NCBI GenBank assembly: GCA_036004845.1
Contig: DASYRA010000026.1
Span: 4,477 to 68,476, forward strand
DNA: 64,000 nucleotides
Direction of reading: 5' to 3'
DNA from: Candidatus Limnocylindria bacterium
Lineage (GTDB): Bacteria > Chloroflexota > Limnocylindria > QHBO01
The position numbers were made by a program, and so were the translations under genes. The notes beneath the pieces are model-generated. The model was not told the DNA's origin, did no database searches, and saw nothing but the letters and a program-made list of their open reading frames with translations. Of the stretch, positions 57,594 to 62,035 are shown piece after piece. Position 1 is the first letter of the stretch, and the number at the start of each line of letters is the position of its first letter.

Positions 57594-58768
57594 CGCTCGG
57601 CCAGTGCCAGCCCGATCCCTATGCTGGCGGCGAGCCGCTCGGCCGCGTTCGTCAGCAGGCGCTCGGTGTCGGCCATCGCCTCCGCCAGGGTCATCGGCCG
57701 GTCCGCAACCGGCTGGATCAGCTGGAAGAGACCGGACACCTCCAGGGCCTCCGAGCCCGGTCCGAGCGTGCCGCACAGGAGGACCACCGGCGTGCCCCGT
57801 CCGCCGGCCATCTGGGCGACCCCCATCGCCGCCTTGCCGGCGAGCGTCTGCTCATCGGCACGACCCTCGCCGGTGATCACCAGATCGGCATCCTCCAGGG
57901 CGGCGGTGAGGCCGATCATCTCGGCGACCACCTCGACGCCCGGCCGCAGCGTGGCATTCGTGAAGCCGAGCAGCGCGGCCCCCGTCCCGCCTGCGGCACC
58001 GGCACCCGGATGATCGGCGACGTCTCGATTCGTCGCCGCCTGGATGGCAGTGCCGTAGATCCCGAGCGCCGCGTCCAGGTCCGCCACCGCGTCCGCATCG
58101 GCGCCCTTCTGGGGACCGTAGGTGGCAGCCGCTCCCGCCGGCCCGGTGAGCGGGTTGGTGACGTCCGAGGCGACCACGACCTCGACCTGCGCGAGGCGCG
58201 GATCGAGGCCTGTCGGGTCGATCACGATCAGCTCGGCCAGCGCCGCGCCGCCGGGCCCCAGGTCGCCGCCGGCCATGTCGAGGAAGCGAACGCCGAGCGC
58301 CGCGAGCATGCCGCTCCCGCCGTCGTTGGTGGCCGATCCGCCGAGCCCCAGGATCACCCGCTTCACCCCGGCGTCGAGGGCGCTCCGCACCAGCTCGCCG
58401 GTGCCTCCGGTGCTGGCGATGCGTGCCGAGGCCGGGGTGCGCTCCTCGACCTTCAGCTGCGCCAGGCCGGAGGCGGCCGCCATCTCGACGAAGGCCACGC
58501 TGCCCTCCTCGAGCAGGAGGTAGTCGGCCGAGATCGGGCGACCCAGCGCGTCGTGGACGGCGACGGAGCGCCGGAAGGCGCGATCGCCGAGGGCGGCCGC
58601 AACGGCAGCCAGGGTCCCCTCGCCGCCATCGGCCATCGGCGCTTGACTGACCGTGTCCTCCGGCCTCGCTCGCTGCCAGCCTGTTGCGATGGCCCCCGCG
58701 ACGGCTACCGAGTCCAGGGCGCCACCAAACGAATCGGGAGCCACCAGGACGCGCAGCGACGCGCTCAT
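57590..58768 (-). CDS. glxK: glycerate kinase
   Basis: ATG 58768 (1-nt TGATG overlap with the upstream gene). VLVAPDSFGGAL N-terminus and full-length GlxK/GarK-like sequence. The track ORF's 217-residue N-terminal extension is out-of-gene junk. Confidence 0.9.
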   Translation of the reverse strand: MSASLRVLVAPDSFGGALDSVAVAGAIATGWQRARPEDTVSQAPMADGGEGTLAAVAAALGDRAFRRSVAVHDALGRPISADYLLLEEGSVAFVEMAAASGLAQLKVEERTPASARIASTGGTGELVRSALDAGVKRVILGLGGSATNDGGSGMLAALGVRFLDMAGGDLGPGGAALAELIVIDPTGLDPRLAQVEVVVASDVTNPLTGPAGAAATYGPQKGADADAVADLDAALGIYGTAIQAATNRDVADHPGAGAAGGTGAALLGFTNATLRPGVEVVAEMIGLTAALEDADLVITGEGRADEQTLAGKAAMGVAQMAGGRGTPVVLLCGTLGPGSEALEVSGLFQLIQPVADRPMTLAEAMADTERLLTNAAERLAASIGIGLALAER

Positions 58769-60717
58769 CAGCGCTTCAGGGAGCGCCGCCGCTCCTGGTA
58801 GGCGGGGACGCTGCGCATCGGCGGTCGGATCGAGTCCGCCACCTCGCGGACCTCGAGGTTGAAACGGTCCTTCTCCTGGCCGATCACCTTCATGCCGCGG
58901 CCCACCTCGGTCAGCAGCTCGATTCGATGCCGCTCCTCGAGCTTGCTGATGGCAGCCTGCAGGATGGTGAAGCTCATCTGTGACAGGTTGGCGAGCGGCT
59001 GGTTGCGATGAATCCGTCGCTCGAGGTCGACCTGGCCGATGGCCGACAGCCCGGCCGACTCGGCGATGTCGATGAGGAGGCCGATCTCGACTCCGTAGCC
59101 CGTGAAGAAGGGAAGCGACTCGAGCAGTGTCCGACGGCCCGCGTACTCGCCCGACAGCGGCTGGATGAACCCCGACAGCTCGGGGAAGAAGAGGTTGATG
59201 AGCGGCCGGGCCATCAGCTCGGTCACCCGACCCCCGCCCTCCGCGAAGAGGGTCACCCCCTGGCGAATGGGGCGCCGGTAGAAGCCCTTCACGTACTGGA
59301 TCCGCGGCTCGCGCAGGAGGGGACCCAGCAGGCCATGCACGAAGCGGGGCTGGATGTTGCGGATGTCGGTGTCGATCCAAGTCACGATGTCGCCGTCGAG
59401 CACGTGGAGGCTCTTCCACAGCGCCTCGCCCTTGCCGACGAACGTGCCTGTCTCCGGCAGGATCCGCGAGTGGCGCACGACCGGGACTCCCAGGTCGGCC
59501 GCGATCTCGCGCGTCCGGTCGGTGCTGTCGCTGTCGATCACGACCAGCTGATCGAGGAGCGGGACGCGATCCATCAGCGCGCTCTTCACGCGCTTGATGA
59601 CGAGGCCGATCGTCTTCTCCTCGTTGAGGGCCGGCAGGCCGAGGCTGATGGTGAGCCCCTGCTTCTCCTTGAGCTCCACCAGCTTGGCCACGTCACGGAA
59701 CTCGGAGGCGTGGAAGGTGTTCTCGGCGAACCAGCGGTCCACGACCGTGGGCAGCGCGCGGCTGTCCTCGACAAACGCGTCGGCGGCGGCCAGCGAGTCC
59801 TCAGCTGCGCGCAGCTCGTCGAAGGTCGCCACGGCCAGCTCTTGCTTGGTCTTGACCACGACCACCGTCGGCTTGGCGCGCGAGGCGACCGCCTCGGCGA
59901 CCACGCCGAACAGGTAACGACCGTCGGGGGTCACCGTCGAAGGGTTGGCCGATGCGCCCATCACCACCAGCTGGTGGTTGTTCGACTCGCGCAGGATCGC
60001 GGCACGGACTGACGCGGCCTCCCTGAGGATCCCGGTGACCTTGCGGCCGCCGCGGTGCTCGGCCACGAAGCGATCGAGCGCCGCCTGCTCTCGCTGCAGC
60101 GCACGCTCGCCGATCCCCTTGGGGACGACGTGCAGCACCACCACCTGCGCCCCGAAGCGCCTCCCCAGGTCGCGCGCCAGCCGCAAGGCCAGCTCGGCGT
60201 GCGGACCGCCGCGCACCGGCACCAGGATCGAGCTGACGTGGTCCAGGCCGCGCTGTTTGACGACGGCGATGTCCGAGGGGGATTCGCGCACCACCGCATC
60301 GATCGTCGGAGAGAAGACAGCCGACTCGGACGCCCTGCCGCGCGACGCGGTCGATCGCGCGGCGGCCGCCTTCTGCGGGCCTCCCCAGCCGAAGATCACG
60401 AGGTCGGCGCTCTCCTCGCCAACCGCCTCGATCACGCCATCGGCGGCGCGACGGCCGATCCGGACCATCGTCCGGATCTCGACCTCCTCCTCGTCTCCGA
60501 AGTCGAGGACGCGCTGCAGCAGGCGACGCGCGGTGCGCGCATGGGTCGCCCCCTCGCTCAGCGACACCCCCTCCGGCACCTCCACGATGCCCAGCGCGGT
60601 GATCTCGGTCCGGCGCCCCCCTCCGACCCCGGCGCCGATGCGGACCAGGTCGCGCGCCGTGCGCGGGTTGGCGAGCGGCAGCAGGATGCGGTACGGCCCG
60701 CGTCGAGCGCGCGCCAT
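58768..60717 (-). CDS. gpgS: fusion protein: tandem universal-stress-protein (Usp) domains plus glucosyl-3-phosphoglycerate synthase (GpgS, GT81-like)
   Basis: ATG 60717 (TGATG overlap). The N-terminal half has two Usp-like modules (YRILLPLANPRTA..., SSILVPVRGGPHAELA...VVVLHVV). The C-terminal half has ISLGLPALNEEKTIG, VVIDSDSTDRT, DTDI and ERRIHRNQPL, typical of GpgS. Confidence 0.8.
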   Translation of the reverse strand: MARARRGPYRILLPLANPRTARDLVRIGAGVGGGRRTEITALGIVEVPEGVSLSEGATHARTARRLLQRVLDFGDEEEVEIRTMVRIGRRAADGVIEAVGEESADLVIFGWGGPQKAAAARSTASRGRASESAVFSPTIDAVVRESPSDIAVVKQRGLDHVSSILVPVRGGPHAELALRLARDLGRRFGAQVVVLHVVPKGIGERALQREQAALDRFVAEHRGGRKVTGILREAASVRAAILRESNNHQLVVMGASANPSTVTPDGRYLFGVVAEAVASRAKPTVVVVKTKQELAVATFDELRAAEDSLAAADAFVEDSRALPTVVDRWFAENTFHASEFRDVAKLVELKEKQGLTISLGLPALNEEKTIGLVIKRVKSALMDRVPLLDQLVVIDSDSTDRTREIAADLGVPVVRHSRILPETGTFVGKGEALWKSLHVLDGDIVTWIDTDIRNIQPRFVHGLLGPLLREPRIQYVKGFYRRPIRQGVTLFAEGGGRVTELMARPLINLFFPELSGFIQPLSGEYAGRRTLLESLPFFTGYGVEIGLLIDIAESAGLSAIGQVDLERRIHRNQPLANLSQMSFTILQAAISKLEERHRIELLTEVGRGMKVIGQEKDRFNLEVREVADSIRPPMRSVPAYQERRRSLKR

Positions 60718-62021: not shown

Positions 62022-62029
62022 GCGCGTCA

Positions 62030-62035
62030 AGGGTA
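62030..62035 (-). promoter_or_regulatory. candidate -10 element (TACCCT, context GCTACCCT) 8 nt upstream of ATG 62021
   Basis: Minus strand reads gggcGCTACCCTtgacgcgcATG. This is the same 8-mer as the riboswitch promoter at 10483. Confidence 0.35.

Follow-up and report, generated by a model that had tools for sequence, protein, structure and literature searches.

A tandem universal stress protein pair fused to a predicted glucosyl-3-phosphoglycerate synthase in a putative compatible-solute operon of Limnocylindria and across the Chloroflexota

Analysis of a 64-kb window of DNA (the whole stretch that was analysed) from the metagenome-assembled genome (MAG) of a Candidatus Limnocylindria bacterium (Chloroflexota; assembly GCA_036004845.1, contig DASYRA010000026.1) revealed a gene coding for a protein, P0001, in which two universal stress protein (USP) domains precede a catalytic domain of the type found in glucosyl-3-phosphoglycerate synthases (GpgS). 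The gene lies between those of a second glycosyltransferase, P0002, and of a glycerate kinase, in a region with a G+C content of about 70%. Our best explanation, to which we assign a probability of roughly 0.65, is that P0001 is a functional GpgS fusion that would act with P0002 and the kinase in an operon devoted to a glycosylglycerate-type solute, its USP pair playing a regulatory or oligomerising role. Overall, we regard this locus as an uncharacterised variant of a known pathway.

Judged by its sequence, the C-terminal half of P0001 is a bona fide GpgS-type catalytic domain of glycosyltransferase family GT81. The initial annotation had identified this half as a GpgS subject to its agreement with GT81 or GpgS profiles, and it matched the NCBIfam equivalog model for GpgS, NF010496, with 383.5 bits for a cut-off of 262, the match spanning residues 326-637 of the protein and positions 5-305 of the 307-position profile; in a six-frame search of the genome, the same model scored 384.8 bits. 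The nearest solved structures all belong to GT81 (3f1y, 254 bits; 7p5l, a GpgS from Mycolicibacterium/Mycobacterium, 231 bits; the GpgS 4y6n, 222 bits). The three motifs from which a GpgS had been proposed (LPALNEEKTIG, VIDSDSTDRT and ERRIHRNQPL) are all found in P0001, and together with the Pfam Usp model and NF010496 they bear out the division of the 649-aa protein into two Usp modules and a GpgS half. The statement in the initial annotation that characterised GpgS enzymes are single-domain proteins of about 320 aa also holds for the solved chains, which measure 326-387 aa and have no Usp part.

Residue-by-residue alignment matched P0001 to all the residues named as functional in GpgS from Mycobacterium tuberculosis (PMC2581804). 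In the numbering of that enzyme, PALNE aligns with the nucleotide wall, GKGEALW keeps Lys114, the DXD metal motif is DTD (WIDTDIR in P0001 versus FIDSDLI in 4y6n), GYGVEIG is identical in 4y6n and keeps Tyr229 and Glu232, RRIHRNQ (VRAHRNR in 4y6n) keeps Arg256 and His258, and Met269 is also kept. Alignment with 4y6n thus places both the Lys114-Asp134-Glu232 network and the metal ligand His258 in P0001. In the M. tuberculosis structure, the carboxylate of 3-phosphoglycerate (3-PGA) is held by Val186 and Thr187 of GGGRVTE (PMC2581804). P0001 has the segment GGGRVTEL in exactly the form seen in the mycobacterial and Rubrobacter enzymes, and GGGRVTE is kept in 20 of the 21 phylum-level fusions. 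The mycobacterial enzymes, which match P0001 at 222-231 bits across the entire catalytic domain, have in common with it the retaining GT-A fold and all of the named nucleotide, metal, sugar and 3-PGA residues, including a PLSGE loop (PMC2581804). They differ in being stand-alone proteins of about 325 aa that prime methylglucose lipopolysaccharide (MGLP), whereas P0001 has about 320 extra N-terminal residues and belongs to another operon.

The sugar loop of P0001 reads QPLSGEYAG (PLSGE; Leu209 and Ser210). The serine of PLSGE was proposed to rigidify the loop and thereby exclude mannose, a structural proposal and not a proven determinant (PMC2581804). The top-scoring solved relative of P0001 (254 bits) is the mannosyl-3-phosphoglycerate synthase (MpgS)/GpgS of Rubrobacter xylanophilus (3f1y, 3kia and 3o3p), to which a 2011 paper by Empadinhas et al., cited in PMC3736172, ascribes dual mannose and glucose specificity in its title. 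It shares with P0001 a 'W-F-x-x-x-[ST]-[FY]' lead-in helix region before the glycosyltransferase core and differs by its length of 387 aa, its lack of a Usp part and its PLAGE loop. Because P0001 has PLSGE where the dual-specificity enzyme has PLAGE, glucose is favoured as the probable donor. That the fusion would instead be an MpgS, or a dual MpgS/GpgS, and the product of the operon mannosylglycerate, appears unlikely. The order of the structural matches (254 bits for 3f1y versus 231 for mycobacterial GpgS) suits this alternative, as do the PIGGE loop of P0002, which is near the PLGGE of the mannose-using mannosylglycerate synthase, and the presence of PLAGE in some relatives, as in Rubrobacter; P0001 itself, however, carries PLSGEY, the serine-stabilised loop proposed to exclude mannose (PMC2581804), and scores above the GpgS equivalog cut-off.

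The fusion is real, is not an artefact and is not rare. More than 100 full-length homologues (about 650 aa, 79-93% identity) came up in a word-indexed search; they are named "glucosyl-3-phosphoglycerate synthase" by NCBI (in MAGs of Chloroflexota or Candidatus Limnocylindria) and either GpgS or "nucleotide-binding universal stress UspA family protein" by JGI. Species-representative genomes hold 515 stretches coding for a relative, and the 80 top-ranking ones of these 515 are all full length, so that at least 80 Limnocylindria species genomes carry the complete fusion. An even sample of the Chloroflexota gave matches in 136 of 401 genomes, about 115 of the 401 covering residues ~8-646 with 43-60% identity and representing more than 20 family-level groups, including Anaerolineales such as Ca. 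Villigracilis saccharophilus. Unfused GpgS was almost absent from the same 401 genomes, with two weak partial matches. Contigs with the operon, at 74-92% protein identity to the window (L011, L062, L066, L076, L079, L081 and L084), were found in a few MAGs labelled as other phyla, namely Methylomirabilota, Steroidobacteraceae, Binatia, Zixibacteria and Dormibacterota; the simplest reading is that they are mis-binned Limnocylindria contigs. At one locus (G040:C3:48151-49963), the Usp half and the GpgS half occupy two overlapping frames (query residues 7-412 and 400-643), as would be expected from a frameshifted copy or a sequencing error.

The possibility that an assembly or frameshift error had joined a tandem-Usp gene to gpgS was raised in the initial annotation; a gene-calling error was considered as well. 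Stand-alone tandem-Usp proteins (~314-342 aa, 30-35% identical to the Usp half of P0001) do exist in the phylum, and the halves are separate in G040, but the frame of P0001 is uninterrupted and the architecture recurs in independent assemblies of more than 500 species-level genomes, some on contigs of 2 Mb and more, at 43-93% identity. An artefact can be dismissed with near certainty, and an assembly artefact in particular was rejected on the ground that independent assemblies have the same architecture. The initial annotation had also allowed that such fusions might already be widely annotated and characterised. Half of this was confirmed, as the NCBI and JGI pipelines annotate them; literature searches on GpgS with universal stress protein, Chloroflexi or Limnocylindria found no publication on the fusion, whether on the USP-USP::GpgS architecture and its phylum-wide conservation, on its kinship with permease tails or on the multi-enzyme fusions of GpgS described below.

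A search of 1.84 billion cluster representatives, a library without taxonomy labels, yielded 775 matches at E <= 1e-30. We assembled 128 sequences with a near-complete GpgS domain, consisting of 108 of the top 150 representatives and 20 of the 21 fusions assembled here, of which at least 61 are USP-fused. In a maximum likelihood tree of the GpgS domain, 31 of the 36 single-domain enzymes fell in one 46-row clade that contains no USP-fused member (SH-aLRT 89). This quick, unrooted tree with a weak backbone is compatible with a single old fusion event, in which case the tandem-USP N-terminus of P0001 would have been inherited from an ancient fusion common to the phylum Chloroflexota.

P0001 matched the Pfam Usp model (PF00582) with 66.7 bits for a cut-off of 24, in two stretches of which the best covers residues 163-289. 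The Usp fold is a known nucleotide-binding module. USPs of the ATP-binding MJ0577/UspFG type carry the motif G-2x-G-9x-G(S/T) and an aspartate in strand beta1, which ends in V-D-x-S. In the first domain of P0001, N17 (PLANP) occupies the position of the beta1 Asp; where the glycine motif would stand, the sequence runs GWGG, then an insert of 21 aa, then S136 (FSPT). The insert (PQKAAAARSTASRGRASESA, residues ~114-133, window positions 60319-60378 on the minus strand) is a low-complexity segment rich in Ala, Ser and Arg that interrupts the glycine-rich loop; among Limnocylindria its length is variable, and other classes lack it. Three fusions from other classes (L104, L105 and L106) keep both the Asp and G-x2-G-x9-G-T in this domain. 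In the second domain, the phylum-level alignment revealed a near-invariant L-x-P-x-R-G-G at the end of beta1 (90% consensus 'L.P.RGG....L'), which is PVRGG in P0001; the glycine motif there reads GASA...FGV and is not a canonical ATP motif. Since the motif and the beta1 Asp are missing in both domains, gating by ATP or AMP is unlikely in P0001. Mean pairwise identity across the phylum is highest in the GpgS domain (61%), lower in each Usp domain (31%) and lowest in the linker (14%). The Usp module is conserved, though more loosely than the enzyme. Together with the spread of full-length copies, these values indicate that selection acts on the fusion.

A stress-sensing pair giving the synthase built-in allosteric control was the role put forward in the initial annotation. 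In its general form, this proposal makes the pair a small-molecule sensor, for an adenine nucleotide, cAMP, c-di-AMP or a similar ligand, that switches GpgS allosterically. Besides the nucleotide-binding character of the fold, it draws on the motif kept in L104, L105 and L106, on the near-invariant RGG of the second domain, located at the position of the beta1 loop that contacts ribose and phosphate, and on the retention of the module over the whole history of the phylum. Yet both motifs are broken in P0001 (N17, the 21-aa insert and S136 in one domain; RGG and GASA...GV in the other), the sequence names no ligand and the structure model is unusable. We consider such a switch rather improbable; the nucleotide-sensing part of the proposal fared poorly, and a role for another ligand or for a partner protein may still be envisaged. 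We infer that the pair is a regulatory or oligomerisation module and that canonical ATP binding was lost in this lineage.

Outside GpgS proteins, the Usp half has its closest relatives (~30% identity, E 1e-35) in two types of protein encoded in other Chloroflexota. One type consists of APC amino-acid permeases that end in a tandem Usp (AA_permease_2 followed by two Usp domains, 772 aa), the other of stand-alone tandem-Usp proteins of about 314 aa. This kinship suggests a portable regulatory or assembly module and not a dedicated ATP sensor. The USP domain of KdpD may be compared. In the permeases the module is C-terminal on a membrane transporter, whereas in P0001 it is N-terminal on a soluble biosynthetic enzyme. 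Separately, APC permeases of ~740-830 aa ending in a tandem Usp were recorded at L128 (G250:C87), L129, L131 and L133, with 24-31% identity to the N-terminal half of the fusion; their tandem Usp has the VPVxGGP and GW.G signatures in common with it. L132 was recorded with them, and a stand-alone tandem Usp of ~314 aa also exists.

The USP pair of P0001 would more likely sense a cue other than ATP, or dock a partner, as its APC-permease homologues presumably do. An extension of this idea, which we regard as speculative and unlikely to be correct in full, is that the tandem USP is one portable stress or osmotic switch mounted on both APC transporters and GpgS, and that in Limnocylindria it forms a complex with P0002 and chooses between glycerate and 3-PGA as the acceptor. 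If this were true, solute uptake and de novo synthesis would be placed under post-translational control by the same non-ATP cue, the candidates being ionic strength, a partner protein common to both and a ligand held by the invariant RGG loop.

P0002 scored 55 bits with NF010496 (cut-off 262) and 20.9 bits with Glycos_transf_2 (cut-off 23.3); there was no match to Pfam MGS_GT at E <= 0.01 and no NCBIfam match besides the sub-threshold one to GpgS. A profile built from P0002 homologues of family, class and f4 level (A3) and searched against the PDB matched GT81 GpgS at E 2.5e-8 and, at E 7e-5, 2bo4, a mannosylglycerate synthase of family GT78. K114, D137-S-D139, H251 and T177 of P0002 do not vary in A3 and correspond, in that order, to the catalytic Lys, DXD motif, metal His and carboxylate Thr of GpgS, the motifs GKG, DSD and PIGGE are kept, and the Arg that precedes the carboxylate Thr in the GGGRVTE of GpgS is a Thr in P0002. 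With the mannosylglycerate synthase of Rhodothermus marinus (2bo4), P0002 shares a PxGGE sugar loop, PIGGE resembling the PLGGE of that enzyme, a Lys-Asp-acid network and a His metal ligand; it differs in matching GT81 slightly better, as the two E values indicate, and in a distinct helical C-terminal region of ~160 aa. By these alignments, P0002 is a divergent enzyme of the GT81/GT78 clan.

Links between P0002 and the fusion were found in the form of Rosetta-stone proteins. P0245 is a triple fusion of 1061 aa consisting of a P0002-like part (54% identity to P0002), two Usp domains and GpgS, and P0272 (748 aa) joins GpgS to an MGS_GT domain. Some P0002 homologues are labelled "glucosylglycerate synthase" by JGI, a KO-derived name carried by a subset only, and in a published table of annotations an entry named "glucosylglycerate synthase" is assigned to GT81 (PMC8790579). 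The initial annotation had offered two roles for this transferase, a single-step glucosylglycerate synthase or an extender of the solute. Because P0002 belongs to the GT81/GT78 clan and is linked to the fusion by Rosetta-stone proteins, the single-step role fits better, and the extender role fits less well, the known extenders being GT4 enzymes. We tentatively propose P0002 as a candidate one-step glycosylglycerate synthase acting on D-glycerate, a proposal for which the odds are close to even but somewhat short of it. An identity as MggA or MggS, the GT4-type enzymes that extend to mannosylglucosylglycerate (MGG) (PMC3736172), was rejected, as those have the GT-B fold whereas P0002 is of the GT-A type. 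Further multi-enzyme fusions of GpgS were recorded with P0245 and P0272 (P0283, P0304, P0328 and P0350); they comprise GT4+GpgS proteins of ~750 aa, a GpgS+GT4 protein of 690 aa and, as the longest, a GT4+GpgS+alpha-amylase family protein of 1383 aa.

A layout with two transferases is precedented. The ggs-gpgS-gpgP cluster of Persephonella marina combines the one-step enzyme Ggs with the two-step route through GpgS and GpgP (PMC3736172). The likeness to the Limnocylindria locus lies in the layout, the gene of a second transferase, putatively glycerate-directed in Limnocylindria, standing beside gpgS; the third gene of the P. marina cluster codes for a phosphatase, whereas here it codes for a glycerate kinase, and GpgS here bears a USP pair. 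In 2007, Fernandes et al. reportedly described the second glycerate-directed transferase beside gpgS in P. marina as giving two routes to one solute. The catalytic parts of the Limnocylindria locus belong or are close to known families, and both the two-route layout and the association with a kinase are precedented.

The genes of the array and the domains of P0001 are listed in Table 1. The chain of four minus-strand genes joined by 1-4 nt overlaps that the initial annotation had described is found in both the open reading frames (ORFs) and the junction sequences. At 60717, the junction between the genes of P0002 and the fusion reads GGCTGATGGCG, its TGA and ATG having one base in common (TGATG); at 58768, the junction between the fusion and the glycerate kinase gene (CGCTGATGAGC) is again TGATG with one common base; and at 57590-57593 the kinase and Nth-like genes (CGGTGAGCG) overlap by the 4 nt GTGA if GTG is the Nth start. 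The P0002 gene had been placed at 60717..62021; the gene stands, its ORF running to a TTG start at 62030, with the ATG at 62021 as an alternative start. This TTG lies 29 nt from the stop codon of the helicase gene and has GAGGG 8 nt on its 5' side. A simple promoter and terminator scan of 56000-64000 found no signal above chance. From this arrangement, the Limnocylindria fusion is best explained as co-transcribed and translationally coupled with P0002 and the glycerate kinase.

Table 1. Coordinates in the window of the genes of the array and of the domains of P0001
Feature	Position	Strand	Basis or remark
P0002, GT-A glycosyltransferase, 437 aa	60717..62030	minus	TTG start; alternative ATG at 62021
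P0001, tandem-Usp::GpgS fusion, 649 aa	58768..60717	minus	Uninterrupted single frame
Usp domain 1 of P0001 (aa ~9-155), degenerate	60253..60693	minus	Phylum-level alignment and motif scan
Usp domain 2 of P0001 (aa ~160-290)	59848..60240	minus	Best Pfam Usp stretch (163-289)
GT81 GpgS catalytic domain of P0001 (aa ~321-640)	58798..59757	minus	NF010496
Glycerate kinase (class I, GlxK/GarK family), 392 aa	57590..58768	minus	PF02595 and TIGR00045
Nth-like HhH-GPD DNA glycosylase	56763..57593	minus	Pfam HhH-GPD
DEAD-box RNA helicase, upstream of P0002	62060..63337	minus	DEAD 160.7 bits and Helicase_C 99.9 bits

The glycerate kinase that the initial annotation had placed in the operon was confirmed by PF02595 (Gly_kinase, 424.5 bits for a cut-off of 23.3) and TIGR00045 (403.5 versus 168.45). 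Its scores with the 2-kinase and 3-kinase equivalog models (280 and 302 bits) both lie below cut-off, and these models do not decide between 2-phosphoglycerate and 3-phosphoglycerate as the product. Genes for glycerate kinase are known to accompany those for GpgS, GpgP and glucosylglycerate phosphorylase in genomes (PMC7178133), which gives the pairing seen here a precedent. For the fourth gene, which had been taken for endonuclease III, the family held and the precise assignment did not: the protein matched HhH-GPD (46.5 bits, cut-off 26.2), scored 107.4 bits with the nth model TIGR01083 (below its threshold of 211.7), and found its best NCBIfam model, also below cut-off, in NF053634 (160 bits), which describes the DR2438-type monofunctional glycosylase of Deinococcus. 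It carries an Arg-rich N-terminal extension of ~30 aa and keeps the Lys of GRKTA, the Asp of VDTH and the C-x6-C-x2-C-x5-C cluster. The Nth-like gene adjoins the glycerate kinase gene in nearly all Limnocylindria loci; we take the predicted glycosylase to be a synteny partner with no evident functional reason for the linkage.

Synteny around the fusion is strong within the class. In family f1, the order DEAD - P0002 - fusion - glycerate kinase - Nth-like is found in essentially all of the 80 loci that are long enough, and class-level f2 genomes have P0002 - fusion - (GNAT) - glycerate kinase - Nth-like. Most family-level loci have the DEAD helicase gene upstream of P0002; in the two f2 loci, none was found within 8 kb. 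The more distant loci are organised otherwise. In 16 of 20 (14 of 16 outside the class, and both f4), a GT4 gene of ~420 codons, whose product weakly resembles mannosylglucosylglycerate synthase (NF041101, 61 bits), lies directly upstream of the fusion. In 6 of those 20 loci a hydrolase of ~700 aa with GDE_N_bis and MGH1-like parts is encoded 5' of the GT4 gene, and in 6 a His_Phos_1 phosphatase of ~200 aa, from the superfamily that includes mycobacterial GpgP, is encoded 3' of the fusion. In the f4 genomes, a single strand carries the genes for a P0002-like protein, the hydrolase, the GT4 and the fusion. Examples of the GT4 cluster among L100-L117 are L104:7953-11653 and L100:7987-14280. In its gene content, this cluster of the other classes looks like an MGG- or diglucosylglycerate-type pathway.

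These other-class clusters bear on the possibility that glucosyl-3-phosphoglycerate (GPG) is the primer of a larger glycoconjugate (MGG, diglucosylglycerate or an MGLP-like polysaccharide) that P0002 extends. There the fusion stands between the GT4 and the His phosphatase, often together with the GDE_N_bis/MGH1-like hydrolase, and GPG primes MGLP in mycobacteria (PMC2581804, PMC2674218). However, in Limnocylindria families f1 and f2 the GT4 type that adjoins the fusion elsewhere was not found, P0002 has retained the glycerate-carboxylate Thr and, as a whole, the acceptor architecture of GT81 and GT78, and the known MGG extenders are GT4 and not GT-A enzymes (PMC3736172). We consider a priming role in Limnocylindria distinctly unlikely. 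Because f1 and f2 are without the GT4, the pathway there probably ends at a monoglycosyl solute, in line with the operon for a glycosylglycerate proposed above.

Several observations weigh against that proposal. P0002 falls below every curated family threshold. Both Usp domains of P0001 lack the canonical ATP-binding signature, and with both signatures degenerate the pair could be a purely structural relic. PLAGE replaces PLSGE in one f2 relative and in some relatives from other classes; together with the rank of the dual-specificity Rubrobacter enzyme as top PDB match, this makes glucose less certain as the donor sugar. In some species, genes for an M28 peptidase, a PAS/EAL protein, an ECF sigma/anti-sigma pair or a GNAT protein lie between the fusion and the kinase. 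These were rejected as members of the pathway, their families being unrelated to it, and their presence implies that coupling to the kinase is not obligatory. AlphaFold2 models of P0002 (alignment A1; mean pLDDT 48.7, pTM 0.48) and of P0001 (alignment A2; mean pLDDT 46.0, pTM 0.29) were unusable, the underlying alignments being shallow (69-93% identity).

The phosphatase side is a further weak point. Neither TIGR01486, the model for HAD-type MpgP/GpgP, nor His_Phos_1 had a match in the rest of this MAG, which measures 1.35 Mb and is 78% complete as compared to 2.1-2.5 Mb for genomes of the same genus; both searches were also negative in the window, as the initial annotation had stated for a GpgP. 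The same-genus genomes do encode His_Phos_1 proteins of ~200 aa. Since their identity to the phosphatases that other classes encode next to the fusion is only ~30%, no orthologue was assigned. An MGH1-like hydrolase (434-449 aa, 265-272 bits), which would stand for the degradation of the solute, is encoded elsewhere in the same-genus genomes and was not found in this MAG, at its 78% completeness.

In the scheme that we favour, P0001 would transfer glucose from a nucleoside diphosphate (NDP)-glucose to the 2-OH of 3-PGA, while P0002, probably in physical contact with the fusion, would most likely form a glycosylglycerate in one step from an NDP-sugar and D-glycerate. By converting glycerate to phosphoglycerate, the kinase would interconvert the two acceptors and set the balance between the two synthases, and it would also salvage glycerate freed by hydrolysis of the solute. 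The phosphatase step would be encoded elsewhere in the genome, and the end product would be a free compatible solute of the glucosylglycerate type for use under osmotic, desiccation or nitrogen stress.

Other genes border the array. On the 5' side of the helicase gene, an ORF cut by the end of the window (63389-64000, minus strand) resembles, with its translation judged by eye, the C-terminal part of a GalE-like UDP-glucose 4-epimerase and could provide UDP-glucose. On the 3' side lie three small minus-strand genes (54604-56681). The first codes for a Transgly_assoc membrane stress protein of the GlsB/YeaQ type (56367-56681) and stays 3' of the Nth-like gene in the closest relatives; further downstream, 55612-56031 codes for a protein with a stand-alone cNMP-binding domain and 54604-54951 for a YbjQ_1 protein.

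For the stress solutes glucosylglycerate and mannosylglycerate, gene expression is the main known level at which synthesis is regulated. A USP pair fused to the synthase throughout a phylum would make solute synthesis a candidate for control that is both direct and post-translational, and this in a phylum abounding in soil, freshwater and activated sludge (Limnocylindria and Anaerolineales). The fusion would also provide a tractable soluble system in which to address the role of degenerate USP domains, a question that arises equally for USP-tailed transporters. Although no new kind of pathway is revealed, all catalytic parts coming from known families, a three-gene set is now defined for this one. 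Limnocylindria have small genomes, and we found no cultured study of their solutes; our finding suggests that they probably rely on a glycosylglycerate.

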